Part shown: in pieces, positions 44,489-62,871 of the stretch
Numbering within the stretch: the stretch's first letter is position 1
Layout: each line of letters opens with the position of its first letter
Virus record (IMG/VR): IMGVR_UViG_2837229570_000001
Length of the DNA stretch: 64,000 bases
Origin: an uncultured virus (IMG/VR IMGVR_UViG_2837229570_000001)
Lineage: Duplodnaviria > Heunggongvirae > Uroviricota > Caudoviricetes
Reading direction: 5' to 3' (one strand)
Made by a program: the position numbers and the translations under genes
Notes under the pieces: model-generated
What the model was told of the DNA's origin: nothing
The model's input: the letters and a program-made list of their open reading frames with translations, nothing else
Databases searched by the model: none

Positions 44489-44495
44489 CCCCCAC

Positions 44496-45828: not shown

Positions 45829-45871
45829 AAGCAAAAACCCAAGAACATAACACAAAACGGAGGTACAAACC

Positions 45872-46108: not shown

Positions 46109-46116
46109 ATCTATCA

Positions 46117-46145
46117 TAGACAGTAACACGACATCGTGTTATAAT
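46117..46145 (+). promoter_or_regulatory. Sigma-A promoter with an AACACGACATCGTGTT operator in its spacer
   Basis: TAGACA-17-TATAAT; palindrome at 46125-46140. Confidence 0.8.
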
Positions 46146-46167
46146 TCATGCACAACGGAGGGATTGC

Positions 46168-46431: not shown

Positions 46432-46434
46432 CCC

Positions 46435-46653: not shown

Positions 46654-46668
46654 CCCCCGCCGCGCGCA

Positions 46669-46712
46669 AAAACACCCCCGGTAGGCTCTCGACCAGCCCG
46701 CCGGGGGTGTTC
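46669..46712. terminator. Terminator between convergent operons
   Basis: AACACCCCCGG..GGCT / AGCC..CCGGGGGTGTT. Confidence 0.7.
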
Positions 46713-46921
46713 TATTATCCGCGTATTCGCAAATTGTTTTTCCAGCGGCTTTTTGAGCCTGCGGAAACAGCTTCGCGTCGCGCGGTTTGCAATTCTCTTA
46801 ATTTCTGTTTTTGGAACAGTTTTTGACAGTGCTTTTCCCGCCCGCCGGGCGCAGATCATCCCGGCGCGCGGTGCCGGAGGCAATGAGCTTCAAGACCAGC
46901 AGAAAATGACCCGATATACAA

Positions 46922-47404
46922 CTAAACGCGCGCGCGCGTCGCGCGGCCCAAAATCTCGCCGGTTTCCCCCGCATCTTCCAGCGCTTTTCCGAACCGAATC
47001 AGCGCCTTGCTGTCCCAGTGGCGCACAGTGCTGTCCGGCGCGCCGATACGGGCGGAAATTCCGCCCCAACTGTACCCATTGAGATAGCGCATGGTGAGGA
47101 TGTTCTTGTACCTACCGTTCACAGCGTCAAGGGCACTCTGAATGTGCCGCTGGTCGTCCTCCAAAACCTGCACCCGGTTTTCGATCTCCCGGATGCGGTC
47201 AGAGGCCCCGCTTTCCGCAAGTCTGACCACCGCGCTTTCAACCGGGCTGCCCGGCGATGTGCCGTGGGGCATCCCGTCCATGGAGATACCATGCAGGCCG
47301 CAGTATTCGTCCTCCAGCTCCCGGCGCTCCTGCTGCAAAAGCCGCTTCATTTCCGGGATGCTGCGGTAGTACATGATGATCGTTTTCGCGTCTTTCCGCT
47401 GCAT
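46922..47404 (-). CDS. ArpU/RinA-like late transcriptional activator
   Basis: DGMPHG..P.E; IL.MRYL.G.SW..I sigma-4-like HTH; last early gene. Confidence 0.75.
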   Translation of the reverse strand: MQRKDAKTIIMYYRSIPEMKRLLQQERRELEDEYCGLHGISMDGMPHGTSPGSPVESAVVRLAESGASDRIREIENRVQVLEDDQRHIQSALDAVNGRYKNILTMRYLNGYSWGGISARIGAPDSTVRHWDSKALIRFGKALEDAGETGEILGRATRARV

Positions 47405-47426
47405 AATGCTCGCCTCCGTTCCTCTG

Positions 47427-48083
47427 TCAGTCCAGAGTGTCACCAAAGACCGGCGTATCTGCTCCCGCCGTGTCCACATTGCAAGGGCTGTGCATGATCT
47501 GCCCCATTTCCCGTGCCAAAAGCTCATAGCCGTAGTAATCGCCGCTGTCCGCCCACTCACGGAACTGCTGGTAGTTGCCCACGGCCTCCTGCATGACGCA
47601 GGCCACCCGCTCGGCACCAAATCCCAGCGCCTTGTTCATGCCGTAGGCATACAGCTTCGCAACGGTGGCCGCCGCCGCGCGCTGTTCATAGGCCATCGCC
47701 ACATCCCGCTTCTTGGGCAGCTTGTGGATGGGCAGAATGAAGTCTGCCGGGAAGTATGCCGCCGTGTCGGCGGTCAAATCCAGCTCGGCCAGCTCCGGCC
47801 CAGTTTTCTTTTTCCCGTCCACAAGGCGCGGCAAGCCCTCTTTGGTCTGCTGGTAGCGCTCCGCCCGCTCGTTGGCAGCATCCGCCACCCGCTGCAGGCG
47901 CGTTTCTCCAATGCCGTACTTGTCATAGATCGCCGACAGTATGCACATCACAAAGACATCCGCCGTAGCCTTGCGGGCATCGTTTACCCGCTCGCTCTGC
48001 GTCTTTTTCTCCCGCAGAAAGCGCCGTTCCGCCTGTCTGACGGCGTTGTGTCCCCAATATGCAGGTTTACCCTTGTGCTTCAT
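47427..48083 (-). CDS. Hypothetical phage protein
   Basis: 218 aa with duplicated YGIGE.RL / LGFGAERV motif. Confidence 0.6.
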   Translation of the reverse strand: MKHKGKPAYWGHNAVRQAERRFLREKKTQSERVNDARKATADVFVMCILSAIYDKYGIGETRLQRVADAANERAERYQQTKEGLPRLVDGKKKTGPELAELDLTADTAAYFPADFILPIHKLPKKRDVAMAYEQRAAAATVAKLYAYGMNKALGFGAERVACVMQEAVGNYQQFREWADSGDYYGYELLAREMGQIMHSPCNVDTAGADTPVFGDTLD

Positions 48084-48288
48084 TTTCCGCCTCCTGACAG
48101 CCTACCAGCGCCCCGCAGAGGGGGCAGGCGTTGACGCACAGAACATTCAGCCCGCCGCCGGTGGTGGTGCTGTCCATGCACAGGCGCGGTTTGCCGTCCT
48201 CGCCCCACTCCATCCAGAAATCCATGTTGTCCGTGGTGTGCATCTTCTGGTGCCGCTCGCACAGCGGGCACAGTTTTTTTCTTTGCAT
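48067..48288 (-). CDS. Small Zn-finger protein
   Basis: CPLC..CPLCG. Confidence 0.5.
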   Translation of the reverse strand: MQRKKLCPLCERHQKMHTTDNMDFWMEWGEDGKPRLCMDSTTTGGGLNVLCVNACPLCGALVGCQEAENEAQG

Positions 48289-48292
48289 AAAA

Positions 48293-48778
48293 TCACTCCT
48301 TTGCCAGCTTCCGCCACTGGGCATCTTCTTCCTTGCTGTCTGCGGTGATGATTTCCCGGAACTTCCAGCCCAGCGGGCGTACCTGCTCCAAGAAAATCCG
48401 CCGCCGGATATGGTAATCCCGCTGCATCCGCCGGACGAACTTGCTTTTGACCTCCACGATCTCCACGGTGCCGTCGGCATACTCCAAGCGGAAATCCGCC
48501 GTGTAGCGAATGGCGCGCAGTTTTATCCCGTCATACTCGCCCTCCGGGAACAGCACAAAGCGCGGGTGCTGCTCGCATTTCACGATCTCACCCGTTGCCA
48601 TTTTGGGCGCAATGGTGCCTATGTAAAATTCATACTCGCCCCGGCTGTCAAACTCCCGCCCGGTGGCCTTTGCGGCTTTCGCGGCAGCAGAGAGGGAGTT
48701 TCCCGCTCCTTTCGCCCGCCGGGCAAGCTGCTTTTCCGCCTGCGCCCGTGCCCAAGGCGGCAGATCGGACAATTCCAT
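48293..48778 (-). CDS. DUF1064 PD-(D/E)xK nuclease
   Basis: FDSRGE..Y, IRYTADF.L and EIVEVK motifs. Confidence 0.75.
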   Translation of the reverse strand: MELSDLPPWARAQAEKQLARRAKGAGNSLSAAAKAAKATGREFDSRGEYEFYIGTIAPKMATGEIVKCEQHPRFVLFPEGEYDGIKLRAIRYTADFRLEYADGTVEIVEVKSKFVRRMQRDYHIRRRIFLEQVRPLGWKFREIITADSKEEDAQWRKLAKE

Positions 48779-48780
48779 TC

Positions 48781-49653
48781 TCAACGGTTCATCCTCCCAT
48801 TCTTCCGTCCCCGATACGCGCCGTCGGCGGCGGTTTTGAACTCTGCCCGGCGCAAGATCACCAGCGTATGCCGGTGCCCGGTGTTGCTGACCTTTGTTTC
48901 CACCCGGTTCAGGGTGTAGCCCGGATATTTCCGCTCCCAAAATTCCCGGTCGTCGATGTATAGGGTGCTGGCTTCTTCCAGCTTTTTTCGGCTCCACTTG
49001 CTGTCGTTAGGGGGCGGTGTCTTTGGCTTTTCAAGCCCTCGGCTCTGCCTCCACCGGCGGGCGCAGCGCTTGTTCTTGTTGATGTACTGCACAAGCCCCT
49101 CCACGCTGCCGTGGTCGAAATGCAGCCGCTCGCACCGGCAAAGCCCCATCGTTTTTCCGGCGGTGTCTCGCCACAATTCTTCCAGCGTGTCCCGGCTCAA
49201 TCCGTCGGTGTGCTGAATGATGGCGTGGTGGTGGTGGCGGCCGTAGGTAGCCCCCGTTTCGTCGGTGGTGGTGTATTCCGTCGCCATCAGCCACAACGGG
49301 CGCTCAACTCCGTGCTTGTCACACCAGCGGTAGACCCGCCTCATGTATGCCGTCCAGTCCCGATCTACCCGCTCGGTGTCTCCCGGCGCAGGCAGATGGT
49401 CGTCGTCATAGGTGGCCGTCAGAGCATAGTCCTGTTCGGTGAAGTTGGCGTTGACAAGCTGGACGCAATAGCGCTTTGCCCGGTTGTCGTTGTAGGTCTG
49501 CATGGCAAGGGAAGTGGCTTCCTTGCGCTTCGCCCTCCGGCTCGCCCGGTGTTTCTTCGCTGACACAGCATAGAGATCAACTTCCATGTAAGGGGCGGTG
49601 TCGTAGTCTTTCCCGCAGATATGTTTTTGTTCCCGGTAATATATCGCAGACAC
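48781..49653 (-). CDS. HUH-type replication initiator-like protein
   Basis: LVNANF..LTATY, ATE..GRHHHHAII, EELW..G, LVQYINK and RRW.QSRGL motifs. Confidence 0.65.
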   Translation of the reverse strand: MSAIYYREQKHICGKDYDTAPYMEVDLYAVSAKKHRASRRAKRKEATSLAMQTYNDNRAKRYCVQLVNANFTEQDYALTATYDDDHLPAPGDTERVDRDWTAYMRRVYRWCDKHGVERPLWLMATEYTTTDETGATYGRHHHHAIIQHTDGLSRDTLEELWRDTAGKTMGLCRCERLHFDHGSVEGLVQYINKNKRCARRWRQSRGLEKPKTPPPNDSKWSRKKLEEASTLYIDDREFWERKYPGYTLNRVETKVSNTGHRHTLVILRRAEFKTAADGAYRGRKNGRMNR

Positions 49654-49964
49654 AGCTTTACGCCCCTTTCGCGAGATTGCGTTCACCTATGCGGGGGCGT
49701 TGCCCCCGTATTTTGTTATCACGGAGGAATACCCCCCCATTGCTCCGCAGGCAAGGGAGGACAACGCCGGGCGGGGCGTTTCCGCTCTGCATCTGGCCGT
49801 GCAGCATGGCCCCGCCCTCTGTTTTCCCCCCTTGGCCCCTCTTTCCCCGGCTCTGTGGTTCTAAAGTTAAGCACGATATACAAGCCCCATGCGGCCCGCA
49901 GGCCGCATAAGATTTCCGCCGCCGGGGTGGGGTTTTTCATTTTCCGCACCGGCGGCGGGGAGCT

Positions 49965-50192
49965 TCACACATTGATGTACCTGTTCTGGCAGTTCACATT
50001 GTTGCAAAACCGCTCTGTTCCGATCACGCGCAGCGGTTGCCCGCAGAATTGGCAGAAGTTGCCAGCCTGCCGGGGCGGAGCATCGTCCGCGTGCGTGCCG
50101 CCGTATCTCATGCGGTTTATCAGGCACACCACTGACCCCGGCTGCGCCGCCGCGATGCAATGCTCTTTCGCCTTGCAGTTGTAGCACTCCAT
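49965..50192 (-). CDS. Cys-rich Zn-finger protein
   Basis: CxxC motifs. Confidence 0.5.
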   Translation of the reverse strand: MECYNCKAKEHCIAAAQPGSVVCLINRMRYGGTHADDAPPRQAGNFCQFCGQPLRVIGTERFCNNVNCQNRYINV

Positions 50193-50196
50193 GCCG

Positions 50197-50712
50197 TTAC
50201 TCCTTGTCTTTTCTGTTCTCGCAGCCGCCGGGCTGGCACTTGATGCACGGCAGATCGGTCGCGCCGCACACCGTGCCCGCTTCCTTTTCGGCTTCCAGCC
50301 GGTCAGCCAGCCGGGACAGCTTGATACTCTCCCAGTCGGAACAGTCCCCGAAGATCACATGGAGCTGGTTCAACATGATTTCCACATCGGCGCGTTCCTC
50401 GTTGATGGATTCCAGCACCGCCGGGCGTTTGCCGTAACGAATGAATTTCAGCAGGGCCTTGGTCAGCTCCGCCATTTCTTCAACGGCGATAAGGATTTGT
50501 GCGTTGGCACCATAGGTTTGCACAGCCGCCTCATAGAGCGCCATTTCCTGCTGCGCTGCCGTCATGGCTTCATCCGCCGCCGCGAGCTGGGCTTTCAGCG
50601 CCTCCACGCCCATGCGGCAAGCCTCGGTGACTTCTTCCAAACCGCCCTCGCGCTCGTAGTACAGTTCGCGGTGTTCGGGGTTAAGAATTTCAATCGCTCT
50701 CTGAATATCCAT
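50197..50712 (-). CDS. MazG-like NTP pyrophosphohydrolase
   Basis: AVEEMAELTKALLK..INEERADVEIML. Confidence 0.7.
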   Translation of the reverse strand: MDIQRAIEILNPEHRELYYEREGGLEEVTEACRMGVEALKAQLAAADEAMTAAQQEMALYEAAVQTYGANAQILIAVEEMAELTKALLKFIRYGKRPAVLESINEERADVEIMLNQLHVIFGDCSDWESIKLSRLADRLEAEKEAGTVCGATDLPCIKCQPGGCENRKDKE

Positions 50713-51541
50713 TGTGTTCCTCCTTATGTGGCAGCATTTTTGCTGTCGCTTCCACAAAAAATTCCTTTGATCGCTCAAAGCCATAGGCGTTTCGCCCGCA
50801 CTCATAAGCAGCGCGCAAGGTCGAACCACTACCAGCCACTGGGTCGATCACGACATCGCCGGGGTCTGTGAAAATCTCAATCAGTTTTTTCAGCAGCCCA
50901 ACCGGCTTTTGCGTGGGATGAATTTTGGGGTACTCTTTTCCGTCCCGCTCCCACGGGAACCAGTTAAATACCATGTGACCAGTCCCGCGAATGATCTTTC
51001 CTTTATCGTCCCTCTGCGCGCCATTGCGAAACTTTGGCAGCTTGTCCCGATAAAGCACCACCGCGAACTCTGTTGCTCCCACGATACGCATATTGGCTTT
51101 CAGGACTTGCGCGGAATAGTTTTTGCAGAAGAACAGAGGGTAGGAATTTTTGAATCCATACTGTTTCCCGTATTCTGTTACAGTCTGCATCTGCTCATAG
51201 GCACAGAATACGATCATGGCCGGTGCTGTTCCGGGCGCTTTCGGCTCTTTTTTCAACAGGCGGTTGCAAAAGTGCATATACTCTGCGATTTTGAATTGCC
51301 CATCACCGTCAAAGAAAGCCGATTTTGCCAATTTGCTTTCCCCGTTCCTGTTGTCGCCGCCGTTATACCACATCGGATTGCTCCCATAAGCATCGGCTCC
51401 GATGTTGTACGGAATATCAGCAATCACAAGCTGGGCTTTGGGAATGTTATATCTCTTGAAATTCTGGAAATTATCGTGGTACAGCTCGACCTTTATCTCT
51501 TTGCGCTTGCCCTCGATGTGATCTGCCAGCTCATTCCCCAT
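50690..51541 (-). CDS. N4/N6 DNA methyltransferase (beta class)
   Basis: IADIPYN, HPTQKPV and VIDPVAGSGST motifs. Confidence 0.88.
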   Translation of the reverse strand: MGNELADHIEGKRKEIKVELYHDNFQNFKRYNIPKAQLVIADIPYNIGADAYGSNPMWYNGGDNRNGESKLAKSAFFDGDGQFKIAEYMHFCNRLLKKEPKAPGTAPAMIVFCAYEQMQTVTEYGKQYGFKNSYPLFFCKNYSAQVLKANMRIVGATEFAVVLYRDKLPKFRNGAQRDDKGKIIRGTGHMVFNWFPWERDGKEYPKIHPTQKPVGLLKKLIEIFTDPGDVVIDPVAGSGSTLRAAYECGRNAYGFERSKEFFVEATAKMLPHKEEHNGYSESD

Positions 51542-52196
51542 CGGCCATATCCTCCATTTCGACCTGTTCCGGCTCCGCTTCGCCCTCTGCGATCTCCGCC
51601 GCCTCTCCCGCTTCCGCCCGCGCACGCTGGCGGAAAAGCTGCTCGGCGCAAAGTGCCTCAAATTCCTGAAGCTCTGCAAGGAATTTCTCGCTGATAATCT
51701 GCAATGGAAGAATGACTGCCAAGATGCTGAATCCATCCTTGACGGCAATATACCGCGTCCCGCTCGGCAGGCGGCGCACCGTCATTTCCAGATAGTCGCT
51801 ATCTTTCAGCACATCGGACAGCGGGGCAAGATAGTTGTCGTCATAAAAGATCAGCTCGCCGTCGTTGGTGCGCAGGGCGGATGCATATATACCTTTGACT
51901 GCCGCCACCATGGCGACCGGCTTTGTGGCCTGTTCGCCGGGGTCGTAGTCCCGCAGGTTATAACCGATCACATCCCGCGTTTCTTCGCAGTCATATTCCC
52001 GCAGATAAACCTTGTCCATCTGCTTATCGTCAAGGCTCAAAATGGCTCGCGTCTGCTCTCGTCCGCTGAACTCCGGCAGCTCACCGGCGCGATATATCGC
52101 CCCTTTGCAGCCCAGCCATACACCGTCGTTATGTACCCGGAACACACTGCAAAGGCCCTCCCGCCGCACCAGCGCGGCATACTTTGATAGCTTCAT
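51531..52196 (-). CDS. Hypothetical phage protein
   Basis: 221 aa; GGAGG RBS. Confidence 0.6.
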   Translation of the reverse strand: MKLSKYAALVRREGLCSVFRVHNDGVWLGCKGAIYRAGELPEFSGREQTRAILSLDDKQMDKVYLREYDCEETRDVIGYNLRDYDPGEQATKPVAMVAAVKGIYASALRTNDGELIFYDDNYLAPLSDVLKDSDYLEMTVRRLPSGTRYIAVKDGFSILAVILPLQIISEKFLAELQEFEALCAEQLFRQRARAEAGEAAEIAEGEAEPEQVEMEDMADGE

Positions 52197-52509
52197 CGTG
52201 CGCCCTCCTTATCCCATCAGGAACAGCCAGCACAGCTTAATGATCGCCGCAGGGGCGATGATTGCCGCCGCCGACCACAGCGCGGCACCCACCACCAACA
52301 GCGCACCAAACAACAGCGCCAACGCCTCGTTGTTCTCGTTCTTCATAAAGGCTCTACCTCCGCCGGGTATTCCTTGTCCTGATCGTCCCGCTCGGCATCC
52401 TCCCGGACATGGTTCAGAAAGGTTTCCGTCTGCCGCAGGCAGAACGCTTCTTCACCCTCGGCCTGCAGTTCCAAGCCGAAATAGCGCATCGTGATCTTTG
52501 CCATGGCTG

Positions 52510-53049
52510 TTATCTCCTTTCACCGATGGTCACATAGGCCGTTCCCCGGCTGTTGATCTCCATGTCAACAGGGCTGCCGCAGTCCATGCAGATGTGCGTG
52601 TGCTGCTTTGCCGTCAGATTGGTTTTGTAGCGGAAAGTCTTGCCGCATTTACAGTGCATGAACATGGGGCGCAGCTTTTCCAGCGGCGTTTCGTGACCGC
52701 ACTTGCACTTAAAGCCGTAGGTTTCCCGTCGGGCGTTATAGGCTTTGACCTCGCCGCAATCCTCGCACTGAATCATCAGAAAGCCCTTGTACGGCCCCTG
52801 ATCGCTGTCGGGGTTTCGGGGCTGTGCCGGGGTGTCCCATGTATCGCGGCTGCCAAACACCCGCTCCGTCCGGCTCCGGCGCTCCGGCTCCCGCTGGGGT
52901 GCGGTGCTTGCTTTGGCGGGCTGATTATCCAGCCGGACGCTCTCGCCGGTGGCCGTGTCCTCCAAATACACGCCGCCGTCCTTGGCAAACGCCCGCAGCG
53001 CGCCCCGCTGGCACAGCTCCCGCACGCTCTGAATGTTGATGTTCTCCAT
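52510..53049 (-). CDS. Zn-ribbon protein
   Basis: YKGFL.I.CE.CG..C.CG..CKCG..C..CG. Confidence 0.6.
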   Translation of the reverse strand: MENINIQSVRELCQRGALRAFAKDGGVYLEDTATGESVRLDNQPAKASTAPQREPERRSRTERVFGSRDTWDTPAQPRNPDSDQGPYKGFLMIQCEDCGEVKAYNARRETYGFKCKCGHETPLEKLRPMFMHCKCGKTFRYKTNLTAKQHTHICMDCGSPVDMEINSRGTAYVTIGERR

Positions 53050-53060
53050 GGTGTTTCCTC

Positions 53061-53300
53061 CTATTTTCTTTTGAAACTCTTGTATGCCGGGCAGGTTGCC
53101 CAGTGCGGTACAAACGCCACCGTGCCCGTGTTGATCTCCGTCGCGGTGCCGGTGATGGTGTCGCCCTCGTCGGTGATGAAAACCTGATTGCCGCCCTCGG
53201 CCACAAATACCGGCTCCGGGTTGATGGGCATTGCCTTTCCGCTTTTCATCCGCACCCAGTCGATTTCCGTGCCACAGCCTTTACAGATGCTCATAGTCAA
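53061..53300 (-). CDS. Small Zn-binding phage protein
   Basis: CKGCG.EI.W..SGK.MP..HWATCP. Confidence 0.6.
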   Translation of the reverse strand: MTMSICKGCGTEIDWVRMKSGKAMPINPEPVFVAEGGNQVFITDEGDTITGTATEINTGTVAFVPHWATCPAYKSFKRK

Positions 53301-53716
53301 TCCCCCGTGCTGCCGTAGCCGCCGCGATCACGATTGCCCAGCGTTTCCACCGGCGCAAACTCAACAGCCGCCGCTTTCTCCACGATGCGGAATTGACAGA
53401 TGCGCGTGCCTTTGGGAATCTTCACGCCCTCTTTGCGCAGGCACAGGGCGGGGAGGCCCCAAATGTCGCCGTCGCCGCAGTAGTCGTTTTCGATCACGCC
53501 CATGCTGTTTGCCTGAATAATGCCCCACTTCTTAAAGGTAGAGCTGCGCGGGACGACATGGGCATAGTAGCCTTTCGGCAGCTCCATCGACACGCCAAGC
53601 GAAATGATCTTGAAGTCGAGAAAGCCCAGCTCCACATCCTCCGCCGTGGCAAGGTCTACCCATTCGCCGTGACTTTCCGGCAGTGGGTTCCCGTGCGTAT
53701 TGATCTTGATTTCCAT
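53297..53716 (-). CDS. dut: Trimeric dUTPase
   Basis: VDL, PRSS, GVIENDY.G, RICQ and RGGYGSTG motifs. Confidence 0.88.
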   Translation of the reverse strand: MEIKINTHGNPLPESHGEWVDLATAEDVELGFLDFKIISLGVSMELPKGYYAHVVPRSSTFKKWGIIQANSMGVIENDYCGDGDIWGLPALCLRKEGVKIPKGTRICQFRIVEKAAAVEFAPVETLGNRDRGGYGSTGD

Positions 53717-53749
53717 AGCTTCGCCTCCTGATTATTTGAAACCGGCAAA

Positions 53750-53959
53750 TCACTTGAACAATCTCCCGGTTTTCTTCTCTTTGAGCGTTATCCTGCCGAC
53801 GATCTCAAAGCCCGCAAGCTCGGCGATCTGGCGGAACGCATAGATGATGGCCCTGTTTTTCTTCTCGGCCTCGGTTTCCTGTTCGATGATCTCTTTGGTG
53901 CCGTAGTATGCGGTGGGGTCTGCATAGCCCTCCGCGTTCTTCCGTGGATTGCCTGTCAT
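53750..53959 (-). CDS. Small phage protein
   Basis: KNAEGY.DPTAY..GFEIVGRI. Confidence 0.6.
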   Translation of the reverse strand: MTGNPRKNAEGYADPTAYYGTKEIIEQETEAEKKNRAIIYAFRQIAELAGFEIVGRITLKEKKTGRLFK

Positions 53960-54288
53960 GCCGTGCCCCTTTCTTGCTTGGTGTTTCTCCTTTTGCCGTC
54001 GCCGCAGAAATAGTTCTCGTCAAACATTTTCCAATCCGAACTTTCGTGAGGATGGCAAAACTCGCCGTCAGACAGGACGAAGTGCGAGTGAATGTCACAC
54101 CACCCTAATTCTTTGTGGTAATGCTCGCACTCGCGGCAACGCACAACTGGCACCCAGTCTTTCACATTTTCTGCCTGTTGCTTTAGCTGCCTTTCCATCG
54201 TTTCCTCGTTGTGTTCAGCGCACCGAAGATGTGCCAACAATTCCGCTTTTGGTAAGCGCAGCAATGTGGAATCGGCCAGCCTTTTCAT
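53956..54288 (-). CDS. Hypothetical phage protein
   Basis: PVVRC.EC.H..FCGDG. Confidence 0.55.
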   Translation of the reverse strand: MKRLADSTLLRLPKAELLAHLRCAEHNEETMERQLKQQAENVKDWVPVVRCRECEHYHKELGWCDIHSHFVLSDGEFCHPHESSDWKMFDENYFCGDGKRRNTKQERGTA

Positions 54289-55103
54289 TTCCGGCTCCTT
54301 TCCGCATAGAACATATACTGCTGGATAACACCGGCAGTCTGCGGGTACAGCTCCACCGGGAATTTCCCGGCATACTCTCTGGCGATGATCTTCTTTATCC
54401 ATGTGTCCACCGGGAACGCCTCTTTGCGGCCAAGGCCGAACAGGAGGATGCAGTTGCTCACCTTTTCCCCGATGCCGAAGATGCTTTTCAGGTAGGTGTG
54501 CGCCGCCTCGGTGGGCATCTGTTGGATGGCGGCAAGGTCAATTTTTCCGTAGCACACATTTTGCGCGAGGCGGGCGATATACTTGTCCCGGTAGCCCAGC
54601 CCCAGCCCTTGCAGCGCTTGCAGATTGACCAGCGCCGCCGGAGTGGGAAATGTATGGTAGGTGCCATACACGCCCTCCCGCGCCTCTCCCAGCTTTTTGC
54701 ACATGGCCGCAATCGTCTTTTTGATGCGGGGGATGTTGTTGTTTTGGCTGATGATAAACGACACCATGATTTCCCACAGATCGGCGTTGAGGATACGCAG
54801 CCCCGCCGCGCTCTCCGCCGCCGCGCGGAGGTAATGATCTTCCGCCGGAATGGAACGAATGATCGCGCCGTAGTCCGTCCCGGCATCCAGATAATGCCGC
54901 CACCTATTTAATTTGTTATCTTCGCGCCACAGTTCAACGCCACCGTCAACTTGTCCAAGCAACGCTTGATCTGCACCGTCGCACACGATATATGCACCGC
55001 TGGGGAAAGACGGGTGATCGGTCGCTTTCCAACGAAAGCACTGCCCGCTCTCGGCGATCTGCCGGAGATTGCAGTGGTTTGAAATCAGCAAGCATTTCTC
55101 CAT
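54285..55103 (-). CDS. 8-oxoguanine DNA glycosylase (OGG1-like, HhH-GPD)
   Basis: SGQCFRW, SFIISQNNNIPRI, GIGEKVSNC and FPVDTWI motifs. Confidence 0.88.
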   Translation of the reverse strand: MEKCLLISNHCNLRQIAESGQCFRWKATDHPSFPSGAYIVCDGADQALLGQVDGGVELWREDNKLNRWRHYLDAGTDYGAIIRSIPAEDHYLRAAAESAAGLRILNADLWEIMVSFIISQNNNIPRIKKTIAAMCKKLGEAREGVYGTYHTFPTPAALVNLQALQGLGLGYRDKYIARLAQNVCYGKIDLAAIQQMPTEAAHTYLKSIFGIGEKVSNCILLFGLGRKEAFPVDTWIKKIIAREYAGKFPVELYPQTAGVIQQYMFYAERSRK

Positions 55104-55105
55104 GA

Positions 55106-55270
55106 TTACCTCCCGGCGTTGGCCTTTTCGCAGCAGATCACGGCGGCAAGACGGCTCTGCGCCGCGTTAAGCTCCATGATTGCCGCGTCGATATGTTCCG
55201 CGTCCGCGAAAGCAAAGTGGTTTTCCGCCACCCGCAGCGCGGCCAACGCTTCCTTAAATTCAGGTGTCAT
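55106..55270 (-). CDS. YaaL/DUF2508-like protein
   Basis: AENHF.FA...IDAAI.ELNAA. Confidence 0.55.
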   Translation of the reverse strand: MTPEFKEALAALRVAENHFAFADAEHIDAAIMELNAAQSRLAAVICCEKANAGR

Positions 55271-55557
55271 TCGGTTGCCCCCTCTGCAAAAATGATGGGT
55301 TTCCCGACATACTTGCACCACGCATATTCCAGCATCGCGCCCTTGCTTTCTTTGTAGTCAGGGAGGAACATCACCGCGTCCGCCGCCTCCATCATCGCAA
55401 AGCAAATCCGCATATAATCGACCGGGCGTAGCCCGTCGGGATTGTTTGCCGGGTTCAGGGCGATGTGCCCGACCTGTTCCATTTCGTTTGCCGCAGCGCT
55501 GAATTTCTCCTTGTAGTGCGCGTCGCCGGTGATCTTGCCCGATATGTAGATTTTCAT
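55267..55557 (-). CDS. DUF4406 protein
   Basis: MKIYISGKITG..F..A..LNPA..YM.I..S.GA.LE. Confidence 0.8.
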   Translation of the reverse strand: MKIYISGKITGDAHYKEKFSAAANEMEQVGHIALNPANNPDGLRPVDYMRICFAMMEAADAVMFLPDYKESKGAMLEYAWCKYVGKPIIFAEGATE

Positions 55558-56033
55558 TTCTCCGCCCTCCATTCCAAAGCTGGGAGCATGGGCGGCATCT
55601 TGGCTGTCTGGTAGCTCTGCTCGATCTGCGGCATCATGTACTCTCCGACGGTCTGGCCGTTCGGCAGCACGGTATCGTAGAAAAATTCCCGCTCGAATAC
55701 CGAAATGCCCGCTTCACAGGCAGCAAACTTTGCCTTGATCGTCACGGCCAGCGCCCGCCACCGCTGGCGCACTTCCTGTTCGTATGCCTTTTCCTGCTGC
55801 TCCTTGGTGCGAAGTTGCCCCCGCGCCGGGGTGTGGGTGATCTCGCGGTCATTCCTGCTGGGCAGCGGCAGAACAAAGCGTACCTGTCTGCCGTTCATGG
55901 TAAAGCCGATCACCGCCGCCTCGTCTTTCCAGCCGTAAATAAACTGGCTGGCCCCGAAGCGCACAAGTGTCCGCTCGATCTCGTTCCGGCTCTCGCCGGA
56001 AGAAACCGCCGTGTTTTCTGCGTACTTCGCCAA
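55554..56033 (-). CDS. Hypothetical phage protein
   Basis: SR.EIE..L..FGA; RQRWRAL..IKAK..FEREF. Confidence 0.65.
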   Translation of the reverse strand: MAKYAENTAVSSGESRNEIERTLVRFGASQFIYGWKDEAAVIGFTMNGRQVRFVLPLPSRNDREITHTPARGQLRTKEQQEKAYEQEVRQRWRALAVTIKAKFAACEAGISVFEREFFYDTVLPNGQTVGEYMMPQIEQSYQTAKMPPMLPALEWRAEK

Positions 56034-56052
56034 AGTAAACCATCCCTTTCTG

Positions 56053-56965
56053 TCAAAACCATTTCATCTGAATGTCACCATCCAGCATTGACCATTTGAA
56101 AGTCTTGTCGCCCGGCAACAATATCCCGGCATCTTCAAGCGCAAACCGCCGGTCATAATCGTGTACTGTGTGGCCGTCCGGCTTAAAGCTCACTGGGCTG
56201 TCACTGTCCCATTTCATAAGTAATTTCCATAGATCAGGGTACATCTGCCGCAGCTTCCGCATCTGATCTATGCCTTGGTTATGGCAGAACCAGCAACCGC
56301 CGCGCGTAGCCGTCGTGTAAATCGGCGACAATAGCCCGGCGTATTTGCACCATAGGCCGCAATAATCTTCTTCCCATCCCAGTTCTACCAGCGGAAGAAG
56401 TACGCCCGGTTTGGTATGGCGCGCTATTCGCTCCCGCTCGTCAGCCGCTATTCCAAAGTAATGCACAGTATTTGTGTTCGCGCCCCGTGCGGCGCAGGCA
56501 GAAAAGCCCTCTGTTTCAGATCGCTGGTGCACCAATTTCCCTTTATCATCGGGAAGCCTCTTATCAGCGCACCCCCCCCGCGTTATCTAATGGGTTGGTT
56601 TTTAATCTGTCGTTGCACCAAGCGCCTTTCTGATACGGAAATCCCGCCGGACTGCCGCCAGTAAACTTTCCTCCGGGTTTTCTGTTCGGTACATGGTAAA
56701 AAAGCTGTTCGTATGTGCGCTTTGTTCCATCGGCATTTCGCGCGCATATATGTTCAACTTCAATGCCCCATCGGCGTTTTATTTCATCATCCGCATACTG
56801 CTTAAACTCGACCATCGGGGGAGGGTCTGCCGGAATCGTATCGGTTGCCCACACATCAGCGGTTACGATACGATGAAGCGGCCAGCCCAGCAGCTCGATT
56901 GCCCGCAGGCACGCCATGCTGTCTTTGCCATATGAAAGGCTCAATACATATTCTTCCGTAGGCAT
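56053..56965 (-). pseudogene. PAPS-reductase/PP-loop-like gene split at a G8 tract (possibly phase-variable)
   Basis: LSLSYGKDS half and GIAADE..RGGCWFC half lie in different frames; C8 at 56572-56579. Confidence 0.75.
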
Positions 56966-57043
56966 CCCCGCCGCCCTCCTTTGCTTGGTCTTTCTGGGCC
57001 GGTGCTGTTTTGTGCCCGCACAACCGGCCAAAGCGGGATGTAT

Positions 57044-57701
57044 TTATTCGGAATTAGTGCGGCAATCTCCTGCCCATTGGCTTGCCATCGCTTCGGCAAA
57101 TCCTTTGCAAAGTTTGCTTCTATTGGCCTGCCGATCTTTTCCACCTTTCATAAACCATGTTCCTGCTTCATGGCAGTTACATTCCGGGATTACGATATTG
57201 GTTGGTATAAGTTCAGGGAGGCCGTACAGCCATAGGAGCGTTTTTTTACTCCATTTGTGGCCGAATTGAAACGGTTGAATTGCCTGCGTCGGCGGGGGGT
57301 ATTCAAATATCTTTGATGGCGTAGGGTTTTCGATTGCAATTTTCTCGCACTCGGCGTGGCGTATTGCTTCAAACAGCGCCTTACCACACATGCCCTTGTA
57401 GTATCGTTCAACATTCAGGTGATGGTGCCGGAACAGGTGCTTTGCGCCTGCATTTGTGGTATAGGTGCAGGGAGGAAAGGCAATAATCATATCCCATTGC
57501 CCGTTAATAACTACCTGCACCCCCCCCCCGCGTGGTAAAGCTGCAGTTCCCATTAAGGAGGGGGAGGCAATCGCCTTGAATGTGCCATTCGTCATGTCCC
57601 CCGGAGCACGGGAGGATGTCGCAGCTATATGCTTCATGTCCAAGCTCCCTTAATGCTATCGTGACCGCTTGGCTTTCCTCGCAAGCAACTAACACCCTCA
57701 T
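57044..57701 (-). pseudogene. C5-cytosine methyltransferase-like gene split at a G10 tract (possibly phase-variable)
   Basis: MRVLVACEESQ..SCD half and FPPCT..IENP..K.T.LW half lie in different frames; C10 at 57520-57529. Confidence 0.8.
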
Positions 57702-58267
57702 TTTCCCGTTACCTCATCACAATGCGTCGCCATCATGTCAGCGAAGTGCAGGAGCATCGCCAGCGGGCAGGCATCGTATGCCTTGCCCAGCGTGTTCCAA
57801 TCTCTTTCTCCGCTGTACGCGCCCATGTGCCAGCGGATTGCCAGCGTTTCATCGTGGGACAGTCTGATAAACTGTTGTGCAATGATAACGCTTTCCTCGC
57901 CATGCCCCAGCAGGCGGGTGTCGTCATAGGTGTACTTCCCGTTGTCCCCAGCGCGGTACTTCCCGATCTTGCACAGGTCATGGAGTAGCGCCGCTACCAT
58001 AGCTTCTTTGGCGTTCACAGCCATAAACGCCGGGGTGTTGCACAGATCGCTCGCGTTCATCGCCACATTGATGGTGTGGCGGCACAGCCCGCCGGGCGTG
58101 TTCAGGTGGTGGCGGGCGCTGGCAGGGGCGGTAAAGAATCCAGCCGATTCCATCCACAGCAGCAGCGCCTTTGCGCCGGGCCGGTCGCCCAAGCACTCCG
58201 CATACATAAGGCGATACTGCTTTTCCGCATCCATTTCAGCGAAATCCATATCAGCAACAATATCCAT
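57698..58267 (-). CDS. HD-domain phosphohydrolase
   Basis: FF.APAS.RHH..GGL..H, LLHDLCK, GHGEES, IRWHMG and ADM motifs. Confidence 0.85.
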   Translation of the reverse strand: MDIVADMDFAEMDAEKQYRLMYAECLGDRPGAKALLLWMESAGFFTAPASARHHLNTPGGLCRHTINVAMNASDLCNTPAFMAVNAKEAMVAALLHDLCKIGKYRAGDNGKYTYDDTRLLGHGEESVIIAQQFIRLSHDETLAIRWHMGAYSGERDWNTLGKAYDACPLAMLLHFADMMATHCDEVTGK

Positions 58268-58268
58268 G

Positions 58269-58757
58269 TCAATCCTCCTTTGGCTTCTCTCGGTAGGCAA
58301 GCCATGTCTTTCCGTATTCAGCAAAGCTAAATTTGTAGCGAGAATAACTCATGTTGTCCGTTGGAGGAAGCTGTGTACCAAAAGTCGGTTGTGGATAGCA
58401 AACCCACACAACGCCGTCAATCTGCCGTAGCTCGTCCAGCGTCAGCGGCACATTGAAAGCGTTGCGATTTGTCACGGTTTCCCGCCCGGCGATAGCAACG
58501 CTCAATTCCGACTTGCTATCGTGCAGTTCCTTGACCAGCGCCGCTTTCTCGTCAGTCAGATTCTCGATCATCCGCCGCAGCGCCGCATTTTCGGTCAGTA
58601 AATTTTCGATGGCATCCGCCGCCGCGATGCTGACTTTGTTTGCGCACTCGCACAGATCATCGGCAGGGTCGTTGCAGGGACATTCTTCACATGAGCTGTT
58701 GACCGCCGAGCAAAGGCGCAAGGCTTTCACGATTTCCGCGTAATCTCCCACGCTCAC
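58269..58757 (-). CDS. Hypothetical phage protein
   Basis: ALR.C..C.ECP..AADAIE; PLTLDELR..YGKTWLAY. Confidence 0.6.
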   Translation of the reverse strand: MSVGDYAEIVKALRLCSAVNSSCEECPCNDPADDLCECANKVSIAAADAIENLLTENAALRRMIENLTDEKAALVKELHDSKSELSVAIAGRETVTNRNAFNVPLTLDELRQIDGVVWVCYPQPTFGTQLPPTDNMSYSRYKFSFAEYGKTWLAYREKPKED

Positions 58758-59077
58758 GCCCCCTGTTCCTGCTCCGCAAAATAGCGCTTCCACTCCTGAC
58801 GGCGGCGTTCCTCCCGCATCGGTGCCTCCCGCTCCCACTGTTCCTGCCGTGCCTGCAGCTTGCGCAGGCGGAAAATGCAGCGTTCAAGACCACAGACAAC
58901 AGCCCAGAGGCAGCGAATCAGCGCGCCGCAGCCCACCATTGCCAGCACTACCAGCCAAAGTGGGGTGCCGCCCTCCGCCCACGCTTCCGGCAGGCAGATG
59001 ATGAACAGCCCGGCCAGAATGACGCAGCATTTCACGCTCTCACGCAGAGCGCACAGCCAAAAGATTTTGCGTTTCAT
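58754..59077 (-). CDS. Small membrane protein
   Basis: Two hydrophobic helices. Confidence 0.55.
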   Translation of the reverse strand: MKRKIFWLCALRESVKCCVILAGLFIICLPEAWAEGGTPLWLVVLAMVGCGALIRCLWAVVCGLERCIFRLRKLQARQEQWEREAPMREERRRQEWKRYFAEQEQGA

Positions 59078-59437
59078 TGTGCTTCCTCCTTATTTTGGGG
59101 ACACCATGCCGGGATGTAGGGCAGGAATCGTTCAACTCCCACCACATATCCACAAGTGCTTCCCGGTGCAAAGCACCGAAAAGCCGTCTTTATTGGTGTC
59201 CATTCTTCCATCTTGATGAAACCGCAGCCCTCGCAGGTCTTTGAAAAGTCGGCCATACCGCCGCGATTATGTATGCTCATTCTGGCGCTCCCGCTCGGCT
59301 TTCCACTTTTCGTAGGCAGCCTGATTTTTCGGGTCGCTGTAAAACCTGTCCATCAGGGCGATCAAACTCCGCGCCTGCCACACGCCGATGATCGGCGGGC
59401 GTTCGGCGGTTATTGCCTGCGGCATTGTCAGCCCTCC

Positions 59438-59602
59438 TTATGCGCCCTGCCGGGCTTCGCTTCCCGCTTTCGCGGCTTCGGCTGCTGTCCCATGAACAAG
59501 GGCGGCTCCCTCGATGATGTAGCCCACTCTTTCCTGCACCGATTCGGGCAGCTTCTTCAACTGCTCGACCATGCGGCGAGCATCCATTTCCTTTTCGCTC
59601 AT
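59438..59602 (-). CDS. First lytic-direction small gene (not in the ORF track)
   Basis: AGGAGG RBS; MSEKEMDARRMVEQLKKLPESVQERVGYIIEG. Confidence 0.6.
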   Translation of the reverse strand: MSEKEMDARRMVEQLKKLPESVQERVGYIIEGAALVHGTAAEAAKAGSEARQGA

Positions 59603-59629
59603 TGCAAACCCTCCTTTTTGGCTTGTCTT

Positions 59630-59734
59630 GTGTCCTATGCCAACCTTGTACCCCCATTATAGTAACCTCTGCCAACTTTGTCAACCCCTTTTTCACATTT
59701 ACCAGTTGACTTTGCCAACATTCTGCATTATACT
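59630..59734. promoter_or_regulatory. Divergent immunity promoters with GTTGAC-N3-GCCAAC-like operators
   Basis: Minus strand TTGACA(59684-59679)-17-TATAAT(59661-59656). Plus strand TTGACT(59706)-17-TATACT(59729). GCCAAC half-sites at 59639, 59671 and 59714. Confidence 0.8.
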
Positions 59735-59759
59735 GTTGTCAAGAAAAGGGGTGAAACGA

Positions 59760-60233
59760 ATGAACGACAGAGTAAAAGAGTTGCGCGCGGCACTTTCTCT
59801 TACATCAGAGGCTTTCGGCGCTCGATTGGGTGTAACAAAGGCTGCTATCAGTAAAATCGAAAACGGCTCGCGCTCCGTCACCGATCAAATGGTTCTCTCT
59901 ATTTGCCGGGAATTTAATGTTAATGAAGCATGGCTGCGCAGTGGGCAGGGTTCCATGTTCCGGCAGGATAGCCAAAGCGTTCTCGACCGAATGGCAGACG
60001 AATACAGCCTGACCCGCCGCGAGCGCGCTGTGATCTCCGCCTTTTTGGAGCTTGATTCTACTGACCGCGCCGCCGTTATGCGCTATGTTGATAATCTGGT
60101 AGATAAGCTGGCACCGACCAGCGCCACCGTTGATGATGCCACCGCCGCCGGGATTGCAGCAATGCAAGACTACGCCCGCATGGTGGCCGAGGAAAAAGAA
60201 GCGGAGGAAAGATCGTCCACATCCGCCGGGTAA
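59760..60233 (+). CDS. XRE-family prophage repressor
   Basis: RVKELR..L.LT..FGARLGVTKAAISKIENG..IC.EFNVNE.WLR.G.G.MF. Confidence 0.88.
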   Translation: MNDRVKELRAALSLTSEAFGARLGVTKAAISKIENGSRSVTDQMVLSICREFNVNEAWLRSGQGSMFRQDSQSVLDRMADEYSLTRRERAVISAFLELDSTDRAAVMRYVDNLVDKLAPTSATVDDATAAGIAAMQDYARMVAEEKEAEERSSTSAG

Positions 60234-60330
60234 TGTTGGATAACGCCGTGAACGATTGGCGGCGCAGGCATAAAAAATAGCCCGCCGGGAAGATTCCCAG
60301 CGGGCTTAATTTTACATAGGGGGTAATCCA

Positions 60331-60933
60331 ATGCGTAAAATATGTTCTATGATAATCGCTTGCTTTTTCGTTTGTAGCTTGTTGGCCGGATGCGGCGGCA
60401 GCAATAAAATCTCTCCGCCGTTCTCGGTTGAAGAGCGAACAGGCTACACCGCCGAAGAAGCCATTTCCTTGTTTGAGGATGCCGGTTTTATCAACATTTC
60501 AACCGAAACGGTTTCCACTATATCAAGCAGCAAGATTGGTAAAGTTGATATGGTTACGATTGACGGCAGCTATACTTTTGGGAAGTACAGCAGTTTTGCG
60601 CCGGATGTCCCGGTTGTTATTTCCTATTATGTGGAGCTGGAAAGGACTGCGCCACAGGATGAAAACCCTGACCAGCGCTATGCTGACCGTCTGGACTATA
60701 CCTTGGAGCAATACACCAGCATGAAAGCCGCCCTTATCGCCTGCGGCGTAACCGAAAACGATGTCAAAGCCGTTGCGCGCATCGGTAGTCACGAAGCCTG
60801 CCTTGTTCTTGGCAACTATTCTTTTACTATCAACTTCAATAATGACTACGAATGTGTGCAGATATGCAATGCTGATGCCGTATTTTATGAAGCCGGTGAA
60901 GTCCTGCTTCTTATTTCTGAATACATCAAGTAG
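60331..60933 (+). CDS. Lipoprotein (lysogenic conversion / superinfection-exclusion candidate)
   Basis: Signal peptide with LAGC lipobox; lower GC; lies between the repressor and integrase genes. Confidence 0.65.
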   Translation: MRKICSMIIACFFVCSLLAGCGGSNKISPPFSVEERTGYTAEEAISLFEDAGFINISTETVSTISSSKIGKVDMVTIDGSYTFGKYSSFAPDVPVVISYYVELERTAPQDENPDQRYADRLDYTLEQYTSMKAALIACGVTENDVKAVARIGSHEACLVLGNYSFTINFNNDYECVQICNADAVFYEAGEVLLLISEYIK

Positions 60934-60944
60934 GGGAGATTGGG

Positions 60945-62537
60945 ATGGCAAAGAAAAAAGAAAGCCCCGCCGCCGGTGAGCGCCTTGCGGCGTACTACCG
61001 ATACAGCGGGGGAGGCGGGCAGACCGAACAGAGCATAGAGGGCCAGCGCCGGGATTGCGAGGCATGGGCAAAAGCCCACGGCATGACGATCTGCCGGGAG
61101 TATATCGACCGGCATATCTCCGGCAAGACGGATAACCGCGCGCAGTTTCAGCGCATGATGGAGGACAGCGACAAGCACGCCTTTGACATCCTGATCTGCT
61201 GGAAAACTGACCGTCTCGCCCGGAACCGCTACGACAGCGCCATTTATAAAAGCCGCCTGCGGAAAAACGGGATAAAGATCGTCTATGCCGCCGAAAGCTC
61301 CGTGGATGGCCCGGAGGGCATCATTCTGGAGGGCTTGATGGAAAGCCTCGCGGAGTATTATAGCGCAGAGCTGTCTCAAAAGCTCCGGCGCGGCATCCGT
61401 GAAAGCGCCTTGAAATGTCATTCTCTCGGCGGCTACCATGCCCTCGGCCTGACCTCCAACAAGAACCATGAATTTGTGATCGACGAAACGCAGGCCCCGA
61501 CTGTGCGCTATATCTTCCAACAGTACGCCGCCGGGCAGTCCTCCGCCGCCATCGTCGCCGATCTCAACGCCAAGGGCAAGCGCACGGCCACCGGCGGGGT
61601 GTTCAACAAAAACAGCATCATGCGCATTGTCACCAATGAGCAGTATATCGGCACCTATATCAGCAAGGCCCACAATGTCCGGGTGGAGAACGCCATCCCC
61701 GCCATTATCGACCGGGAGCTATGGGACAAGGTGCAGGCAATGGTGCAGTATAACCGGGCAGGGAGAGCGCCGCACACCAAGCGCGCCAATTATATGCTTT
61801 CCGGCAAGCTGTTTTGTAAGCTCTGCGACAGCTCTATGAAAGGTATCTCCGGCACCGGCAAGCACGGCGAGAAGCACTATTACTACGCCTGTTCAAAGCA
61901 CACCATCCACCAGTGCGAAAAACACAATATCGAAAAGAGCTATCTTGAAAACCTGATTGCCTCCGCCACCGCTGATTATATCCTTGCCCCCGGCAAGCTG
62001 GAACAGATCGCCGACCGGGTGATTGCCGTCCAGCTCGCCGACCAGCACCGGGAAAATCCCGAAAAAGAAATGTTGGAAGCGGAACTGTCCGAAAATGTCC
62101 GAAAGCAAGATAACATCATGCGCGCCATTGAGGACGGAACCGGCAGCGCCCGGCTCTCTGCCCGGCTGCGTGATCTCGAAGAACAGGAAAGCATACTGCG
62201 CGCCCAACTGGCCGCCATTGATGAACCCGCCGCCGCGCCGGTCTATGACCGTGACCAGCTCATTTTTATGCTGTCCCAATTCCAGCGCGGCCCGGACGAA
62301 CAGGACGAGGAATACAAGCAGCGGCTCATAGATACTTTTGTCCATGCCGTCTATCTCACTGACGAAATAGCCTTTGTGCAATTTAACATAACCGACCCCG
62401 AAAAAGCAGAAAGCACCACGCTCGAAAGCGTGATGCTTGATCTGCTCCACGGTAAACCCATCGCGGAAAACCCCAGTAATTCGGGGCTTTCCGCCGGGTT
62501 CGACCGGGTTTCACTTGGTGGAGGCGGGGGGAGTTGA
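60945..62537 (+). CDS. Large serine recombinase (integrase)
   Basis: AYYRYS..QTEQSIEGQ, DRLARN, LSGKLFC..C and YYYAC motifs; the stop codon lies within tmRNA. Confidence 0.93.
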   Translation: MAKKKESPAAGERLAAYYRYSGGGGQTEQSIEGQRRDCEAWAKAHGMTICREYIDRHISGKTDNRAQFQRMMEDSDKHAFDILICWKTDRLARNRYDSAIYKSRLRKNGIKIVYAAESSVDGPEGIILEGLMESLAEYYSAELSQKLRRGIRESALKCHSLGGYHALGLTSNKNHEFVIDETQAPTVRYIFQQYAAGQSSAAIVADLNAKGKRTATGGVFNKNSIMRIVTNEQYIGTYISKAHNVRVENAIPAIIDRELWDKVQAMVQYNRAGRAPHTKRANYMLSGKLFCKLCDSSMKGISGTGKHGEKHYYYACSKHTIHQCEKHNIEKSYLENLIASATADYILAPGKLEQIADRVIAVQLADQHRENPEKEMLEAELSENVRKQDNIMRAIEDGTGSARLSARLRDLEEQESILRAQLAAIDEPAAAPVYDRDQLIFMLSQFQRGPDEQDEEYKQRLIDTFVHAVYLTDEIAFVQFNITDPEKAESTTLESVMLDLLHGKPIAENPSNSGLSAGFDRVSLGGGGGS

Positions 62538-62871
62538 ACCCCCGTCCGAAAACGTTTGAACGGGAACTTCTCCGGGCGCAGACGGTTTTTTAAGATTCCC
62601 TTCCCCAAGCGCGAGCCGTCACGCTCAGAGGGTCGGTAGCTTCATGATGCATGGTGCGCTCAAAGCTTTGCGCACGCACGGTCCCCACTCAAATGACGCC
62701 CCAATCCGGCTCGTGGGCCTTCCGGTTGGAACGGTCGCGGGCTAGTTAGGCCGCGACGAGTTCGCAGTTATCGTTGTTCTTTAATTTATAAAGAGTGCCC
62801 GTTTTTAGAAGGTCAGGCGCCTTCGCCCGCTATTCCCGCCTCCGCGTCCCCGTCGAAACCGGTACGCCCCC
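62516..62871 (-). ncRNA. ssrA: tmRNA; tag peptide (A)KNNDNCELVAA
   Basis: 5' GGGGGCG pairs with CGCCUCC-ACCA including G3.U; GGUUUCGAC 5' motif; T-arm GGGGGUUCAACUCCCC; smpB nearby. Confidence 0.95.

Follow-up and report, generated by a model that had tools for sequence, protein, structure and literature searches.

Introduction

What becomes of an integrase when integration rewrites the end of its own gene, and can such a change decide the direction in which the enzyme works? The question is raised by a prophage of a gut bacterium in the window (the whole stretch of 64,000 nucleotides that was analysed; Table 1), which was shown to recombine at the CCA end of the host tmRNA gene via a site inside its integrase gene, int. 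When the circle is joined by coordinates, the frame encodes 556 aa and ends with a TAA at 12589-12591, and the 4 host-derived residues of the prophage form give way to 30 phage-derived residues. The preliminary description of this DNA had proposed both the read-through of prophage int across the core into antisense tmRNA, giving 530 aa, and the open frame of the circle; the ORF and Rfam coordinates confirmed the former and the recomputed junction the latter. The long form is the only one available to a phage entering the cell, and the short form the only one available to a lysogen; we strongly infer from this that the former must integrate and that the latter must excise.

Table 1. Coordinates of the features discussed (positions of the window)
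Feature	Position	Strand	Basis or remark
Prophage	12500..62523	.	50,024 bp; Pfam; ends from core copies and metagenome junction
Host tmRNA gene	62516..62871	-	Rfam, E 1.8e-63; intact after insertion
att core copy TGGTGGAG, tmRNA end	62516..62523	+	within int codons 524-527
att core copy TGGTGGAG, far prophage end	12492..12499	+	8-bp match and metagenome junction
int-side attP arm	62496..62515	+	GTTC motif at 62498
Far attP arm	12500..12522	+	inverted GAAC motif at 12517, offset 43
int, large serine integrase, prophage form	60945..62537	+	530 aa; codons 527-530 from antisense tmRNA
Stranded 30-aa tail coding sequence (residues 527-556)	12500..12591	+	circle frame, cluster members
Repressor (cI-like)	59760..60233	+	Pfam; first of three co-oriented genes ending in int
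Gene of unassigned role between repressor and int	60331..60933	+	lipoprotein-like N-terminus by eye
Divergent promoter-like pair	59656..59734	.	consensus match only: 12/12 towards early operon, 10/12 towards repressor and int
Candidate recombination directionality factor, 52 aa	59267..59425	-	second in early operon, good ribosome site
18-bp hairpin between free-form int stop and converging lysis genes	12603..12646	.	z -7.3 plus, -8.4 minus
Hairpin just 3' of tmRNA, in int linker	62447..62508	-	tmRNA strand -40.9 vs -34.2 kcal/mol
Terminator-like site for tmRNA transcript, inside int	62411..62438	-	pattern match only
DGR reverse transcriptase	15699-16874	-	within DGR 15699-17320
DGR template repeat	16976-17087
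DGR variable repeat	17209-17320		in 3' end of tail gene
Twister-sister ribozymes, two	43218-43298, 43933-44014
RAGATH-5, three	42196-42248, 44496-44551, 45782-45834
DUF3800-VIII RNA	40481-40547

Prophage, Target and att Site

Pfam matches revealed contractile-tail phage genes in the prophage, together with terminase, portal, capsid and lysin genes and a DGR, in whose repeats 15 of 16 mismatches fall on template adenines. A cluster of structured RNAs lies between small phage genes at 40481-45834, a weak Pfam match to the replication-associated protein ORF2/G2P (E 1.2e-6) is present in this tailed phage at 48781-49686, and the DNA methyltransferase and PAPS-reductase-like genes at 56053-57701 each appear as two overlapping reading frames.

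The tmRNA gene runs antisense to int and overlaps its final 22 nt. Besides the two core copies, the regions 12300-12700 and 62300-62900 have one 9-mer and four 8-mers in common, so that the 8-bp core match alone is no better than chance and the junction needed proof from outside. In X10, a metagenome run not marked as the source of the window DNA, record 3 (1481 bp, depth 13) covers 12492-13538, and its loose end before 12492 corresponds to 62486-62515 of the window; among the loose-end matches listed, the free junction was seen in one of four metagenome runs. The best database match, P0002, is a protein of 556 aa that is 98% identical and ends exactly in the predicted tail. In its 86-member cluster the long tail is found in 6 of the 15 members listed, four of these being identical to the prediction, and two long-tail members are located on contigs of 48,053 and 50,375 bp, close to the length of the prophage element (50,024 bp). 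The same two forms, diverging at the same two glycines, are present in the clusters of P0003, P0013 and P0020. The free junction and the long integrase form occur in nature, and free forms are common in metagenomes. An excision junction elsewhere had been set beforehand as an observation that would speak against the proposed switch; the X10 contig and P0002 both place it as predicted. An exact search with the far attP arm returned no match in viral and genome contigs, a collection from which near-identical genomes may be absent.

The dyad symmetry described for the rebuilt attP is real: the inner CACT/AGTG pair is centred on GG 62520-62521, and the outer pair is one base off. From the dyad centres, this GG, which corresponds to tRNA positions 71-72, is the likely crossover dinucleotide. 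The 8-bp core, the dyad and a motif shift of 5 bp, from an offset of 43 in the free arm to 38 in the tmRNA T-loop (GAAC at 62536), are the features of a large-serine-integrase site.

To the left of 12492 stands the end of another mobile element (ArdA, DUF3849 and DUF4314 genes; Pfam) and not core chromosome. Positions 1-12491 have the content of an ICE-like element end, with three ArdA genes, DUF3849, DUF4314, DUF4240 and a D12 methylase, and adjoin the prophage at tmRNA in a tandem arrangement. In L074, the same mobile-element end (199 of 200 bases alike) directly follows an identical core behind an integrase of the clade described below, and in X10 record 2 it is joined to T-arm-like sequence. 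Because the flank is another mobile element, no empty site matching it was found among the tmRNA flanks of relatives.

The Integrase Body

PF00239 (Resolvase), PF07508 (Recombinase) and PF13408 (Zn ribbon) were found over the cut-off in int, and its catalytic S21 is invariant. Helices at 351-424, combined with the fold match, correspond to a coiled coil inserted in the zinc ribbon, which places the protein among the large serine integrases; its recombinase domains are of the serine type only and not of the tyrosine type represented by Mx8. Fold searches matched only the canonical integrase part: solved integrases align with int only up to about residue 488 (for 9dxh_A, Z 19.2, rmsd 18.9, 448 aligned), and the canonical fold is complete by about residue 485, some 40 codons short of the core. 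Since the alignment with solved integrases extends only to about residue 488, the prophage form contains the canonical enzyme in full, and the tail is an extra element. The 530-aa form was thus shown to keep all catalytic and DNA-binding domains while being devoid of the conserved C-terminal beta-hairpin. From its co-oriented position behind the repressor gene, int is probably expressed in the lysogen.

Distribution of Tail-Swapping Integrases

The best 80 loci each from genomes, viral contigs and metagenomes, taken from longer lists, were surveyed together with the two window forms and classed from DNA alone. The set is redundant. Of its 242 sequences, 12 are incomplete, 16 show no arm that could be recognised and 13 stop too early; in 200 of the 201 scorable ones the frame crosses the core. 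Locus searches with single proteins reached one viral and nine genome loci, and two viral loci. The survey showed that tail swapping is the rule in a large integrase clade, present in phages and IMEs of Firmicutes, that targets tRNA and tmRNA ends. Members of this clade insert in either orientation at CCA ends, both of tmRNA and of many tRNAs; L112, for example, whose integrase is 83% identical, resides in tRNA-Ala.

The GTTC motif on the int side is common to all surveyed sequences. The mirror motif has an offset of 43-44 in 26 of 27 free forms and of 38 in 114 of 123 integrated forms, where it is provided by the T-loop of the RNA gene; this result is partly set by the windows used for classing, and 43 and 38 are also the window's own values. 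According to passages in the literature on characterized systems, the zinc-domain motif of attB lies about 5 bp nearer the centre than that of attP (PMC3783163), with a shift of 4 bp in SPbeta (PMC11722253). These motif positions make it very probable that, in attB, the zinc domain reads its motif in the T-loop of the target RNA gene.

A tail of 22-42 aa with at least 8 hydrophobic residues in 16 was found at 13 of 24 distinct attP-type junctions, as against 4 of 34 tRNA/tmRNA read-throughs, 6 of 47 others and 4.5% of random starts. The other 11 attP-type junctions have no in-frame tail; in some of these the tail lies in a different frame, which is what the insertion of one element next to a second would produce, and in others it does not. 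At L309, L040, L053 and L065, tandem insertions join the integrase of one element to the tail of another, either in frame, as at L309, or out of frame, and tandem insertion is a likely route for the reassortment of tails. Circles were also rebuilt for 20 integrated elements of relatives and three elements of the window's own genome, which represent about three related groups; two of the frames were verified visually. The two ends could be located for 15 of the 23, no left end being found for 8 of the 20 relatives' elements, and all 15 circles lead in frame into a hydrophobic tail, which has 23-30 aa in eight cases and 52-62 aa with a basic extension in seven. The short forms end as the host RNA gene dictates, after 2 to 72 residues.

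Several database entries bear traces of the arrangement. Many of the representatives of the clade among P0122-P0265 are 620-970 aa long, their frame running past the core through host DNA, and read-through fusions in databases as a whole measure 600-970 aa. The GenBank record of Roseburia phage Shimadzu (L302, 3923-5586) annotates the integrase as a pseudogene whose span extends beyond the stop codon, although the frame opens into a normal tail. Three IMEs of the window's own genome with clade integrases, a split tail and a small partner gene are located in G000:C1 at about 725200-733340, 750200-762350 and 2424500-2432710.

Structure and Selection of the Tail

Two strands are predicted in the tail, at residues 536-541 and 545-551, which correspond to about 12526-12573 and thus lie outside the attP arm. 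AlphaFold2 with 77 rows gave a two-strand hairpin in the tail at pLDDT 70-83 behind a linker below 50, and with 30 rows the hairpin reached about 50; its output consists of confidence and secondary structure and contains no contact between tail and body. Strand, turn, strand is the pattern common to 77 long-form tails, which were chosen by eye, so that the figures on structure and composition lean towards this pattern. The tails reassort among the bodies, since bodies that are 96-98% alike carry tails that are 31% alike and bodies that are 63% alike carry one common tail; this behaviour fits strand addition driven by the backbone. A hairpin-like tail was present in all three virion or induced-phage records looked at (Shimadzu, Lelie and Pioen), and the tail is kept despite a differing frame over the core and a differing orientation to the target. 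Its conservation in relatives, on which the preliminary description had made its proposal depend, was borne out by the family survey and by the database clusters. In L311, L313, L314, L316, L317 and two own-genome elements, a basic Pro/Arg-rich stretch follows the hairpin, which we take to resemble a DNA-binding hook.

The tail is under selection as a protein. Six pairs of tails gave pN/pS values of 0.24, 0.25, 0.63 and 0.70, with two pairs uninformative, and L174 and L190, whose cores are opposite, have a common tail with more synonymous than replacement changes. These observations bear on the idea that the tail is a by-product, attP having drifted into the gene end for compactness so that the tail is T-rich att or terminator DNA read through, or else a membrane tether. 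T-rich DNA does read as hydrophobic residues, the window's tail reaching a hydropathy of 1.64 over 19 residues, and the tail region of tRNA-oriented elements also forms an RNA hairpin behind the tRNA; antisense-oriented elements such as that of the window, however, are free of this constraint and keep the tail equally, and the synonymous excess in L174 and L190 despite opposite cores also stands against a by-product. Membrane localisation, which had been suggested for the hydrophobic tail, found no support: in a 19-residue window, a hydropathy of 1.9 is reached in only one of the 77 tails, and the hydrophobic stretch is interrupted by a charged residue in 49, and the membrane anchor was rejected on these grounds. 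A by-product or anchor is accordingly regarded as highly improbable.

Hairpins, Terminators and the Amount of Integrase

The hairpin behind the stop of free-form int is fully paired on the plus strand only, with two G.U pairs, has its U-tract on the minus strand and folds at -39.0 kcal/mol on the minus compared with -37.6 kcal/mol on the plus strand; the terminator scan listed it on neither strand. Of the earlier proposal that it is an int terminator marked by G.U pairs in the plus transcript only, the pairing holds, while the assignment to int is weakened by the position of the U-tract and by the scan. It is at least as likely to be the terminator of the converging lysis genes, and probably is a two-way terminator. 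At the other end, a hairpin and a terminator-like pattern for the tmRNA transcript lie within int (Table 1), although terminator-like patterns in the region number seven against 5.4 expected by chance. In the family, stronger folding of the minus strand is seen in 77 of 82 distinct antisense-type elements and in 26 of 60 sense-type elements; the phage thus appears to supply, via hairpins in the int linker, a terminator for the RNA gene that it enters.

These arrangements also provide the ground for supposing that the swap controls the amount of enzyme, that is, that the half-life or level of the integrase, and not its chemistry, is altered by the tail or by its removal, or by the missing terminator together with the tmRNA transcription that overlaps int. 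The authors of the Shimadzu report guessed at such an effect (bioRxiv 10.1101/575076, in the passage concerned). Prophage int loses its downstream hairpin and meets a head-on tmRNA transcript that ends inside int, and an undocked hydrophobic hairpin could draw proteases. However, the long forms have no common C-terminal tag, the ends of the short forms are set by the host RNA gene at 2-72 residues so that no tuned signal is possible there, and the conserved feature is the strand-turn-strand pattern. An ssrA-type tag was rejected, since 3 of 77 long forms end in AA and the window's tail ends in K. Control of the amount is on balance unlikely.

A Candidate Recombination Directionality Factor

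The preliminary description had identified no separate recombination directionality factor (RDF). This has become doubtful, as a 52-aa gene of the early operon travels with the clade (26 of 46 integrases). The protein has no family match in Pfam, NCBIfam, PHROG or PDB; in the ESM Atlas it matches unnamed clusters at 0.84-0.85, at most a lead, and PHROGs named no excisionase or RDF among the 31 prophage proteins scanned. Homologues were found upstream of clade integrases at 25 of 80 genome loci, three of which (L060-L062) represent profile drift and were left out of alignment A4, and at 19 of 80 viral loci. None was found at the 80 metagenome loci, whose 1.5-kb flanks are too short, at eight distant integrase loci or at 19 tmRNA loci. 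In the window's own genome, with 17 recombinase-domain matches, four strong matches to the 52-aa protein lie upstream of its four clade integrases (one phage and three IMEs), and a fifth match, a fragment, lies near unrelated integrases.

Across 150 genomes of the family, which are kin and non-independent, 26 of 46 clade integrases are preceded by the gene at a distance of no more than 17 kb, and the tabulated genome counts are 26/10/20/94. It is absent near the remaining 20 integrases, five of which have less than 5 kb of contig upstream. Of 19 apparent orphans of the 52-aa gene that were fetched, 11 are located directly behind a far arm and tail of the clade type, one is ambiguous and seven show none, by a scan that misses some arms and fires in 33 of 300 random pieces. 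Among whole phage records, three of five contain a homologue and two, both near complete, do not; it is present in Shimadzu (orf36) and Pioen and absent within 5 kb upstream in Lelie. Co-occurrence thus makes the 52-aa protein a fair RDF candidate.

How the Tail May Set Direction

According to passages of a structural study, RDFs bind at the junction of DBD2 and the coiled coil, most of them adding a strand to the DBD2 sheet, and the C-terminal strands found in some integrases would block the RDF site (Shin et al., PMC12286644). The reading preferred here, with a rough probability of 0.45, is that the tail plugs this site, so that only the prophage form excises. Tethered by a flexible linker of 45 residues, the hairpin would extend the beta-sheet of the zinc domain (DBD2) by its own strands, at the RDF-binding position or next to it. 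The long form would then be deaf to RDF and would integrate even while the early operon expresses the 52-aa candidate. Integration would remove the plug, and the prophage form would accept RDF and excise upon induction; integration itself would thereby license later excision. A sequence-tolerant hairpin on a long tether would fit a plug for the edge of the DBD2 sheet. The plug model requires that int be shut off in lytic growth, since a long form insensitive to RDF could return an induced phage to the integrated state. The more inclusive proposal, that the clade reads the T-loop and CCA end as attB, that a tethered hairpin removed by integration plugs the RDF site and that the 52-aa family is the RDF, is tentative and somewhat doubtful as a whole.

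Direction might instead be set with no RDF at all, the tail enforcing one-way integration, the short form excising itself once expressed and the 52-aa gene being a bystander. Such a switch was proposed for phage Goe14 (bioRxiv 10.1101/2021.11.22.469490, in the part concerned), and it agrees with the absence of the candidate from two near-complete clade phages and from the neighbourhood of 20 of 46 clade integrases. The short form, however, is a whole canonical fold, which in solved systems performs integration only when RDF is lacking (PMC11722253, in the passages concerned); int is probably expressed in the lysogen, where a self-excising form would be dangerous; and the 52-aa gene accompanies clade integrases in phages and IMEs alike. 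An RDF-free switch therefore appears quite unlikely. Alternatively, the hairpin could act as a dial of activity by aiding folding or oligomers, the long form being more active both ways and a weak short form stabilising the prophage. Integration alters integrase activity in Mx8 (passages of PMC6070905), and a hairpin with two hydrophobic faces could associate with its counterpart in another subunit. Canonical integrases nevertheless work without such a tail, and the prophage must still excise well, given that free forms are common in metagenomes, which makes a dial of this kind improbable too.

If the tail does gate RDF binding, it would represent a new solution to the problem of how serine integrases choose direction and would answer a point left open by Shin et al., the role of C-terminal strand extensions. 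Under the plug model, direction would be gated by the DNA state of the int gene and not by separate int and RDF promoters. In practical terms, whoever takes such integrases from genome sequences obtains the shortened prophage version, which ends in junk residues, and has to reconstruct the free form. For work in gut anaerobes, integrases that are directed at conserved tRNA and tmRNA ends and do not damage their target could be of use.

Comparison with Known Systems

The bare architecture is already in print for two serine integrases. The integrase of Roseburia phage Shimadzu belongs to the same clade as that of the window, being a large serine recombinase with att within int, a similar tail and a 52-aa homologue (orf36); over residues 13-556 of the 556-aa form the identity is 39% (E 8e-110), the likeness of the tails being judged by eye. 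Its authors described an integration site within int and two forms differing in the last 22 residues, for which stability was guessed as the effect (Cornuault et al., bioRxiv 10.1101/575076). The passages of that report devoted to the matter amount to three sentences, which contain no family survey, structure, RDF or assay, and they do not name the primary target, which is tmRNA for the window phage. The serine integrase of Bacillus phage vB_BsuS-Goe14 likewise has attP in its C-terminal coding region, and its authors propose that the long form integrates and the short form excises (bioRxiv 10.1101/2021.11.22.469490). In the passages concerned, Goe14 differs from the window phage in its target spoVK, its 3-bp core, the loss of 131 residues and the lack of a visible sprB equivalent. 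In the window, 30 residues are replaced by 4 and the target is tmRNA rather than a protein gene, which sets it apart from the Goe14 type. A C-terminal swap is not mentioned in the relevant passages of PMC6109161, PMC12884075, PMC10083194, PMC5883640 and PMC11792537, and a search of the open-access literature, main texts without supplements, found no study of the clade, the hairpin, the T-loop reading or the 52-aa RDF candidate. A precedent in TndX found no confirmation in the same kind of search.

The precedents named in the preliminary description were Mx8 and the mycobacteriophage repressors; the closer serine cases, Shimadzu and Goe14, had been missed. In mycobacteriophage repressors, integration operates a degron switch, the free form bearing an ssrA-like C-terminal tag. 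The free-form tail of the window ends in K and is not of this type. The Mx8 integrase is a tyrosine recombinase, with different chemistry and no coiled-coil control. Like that of the window phage, the Mx8 gene (IntP/IntX) has attP inside it; in Mx8, integration rewrites the C-terminus with altered activity (PMC6070905, in part). The canonical integrases with an RDF, those of SPbeta, phiC31, Bxb1 and Listeria LI, have the same domain order and the same fold up to about residue 488, and no conditional tail in the passages that describe them (PMC3783163, PMC11722253, PMC12286644); among the structures listed by the fold search, none extends the alignment past residue 488. The 'suicidal' archaeal integrases of the SSV type also have the site within the integrase frame, but according to the passages concerned they are tyrosine enzymes split in two (PMC7253208, PMC8371274). 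In the window int, by contrast, the catalytic and binding regions remain undivided on the same side of the core.
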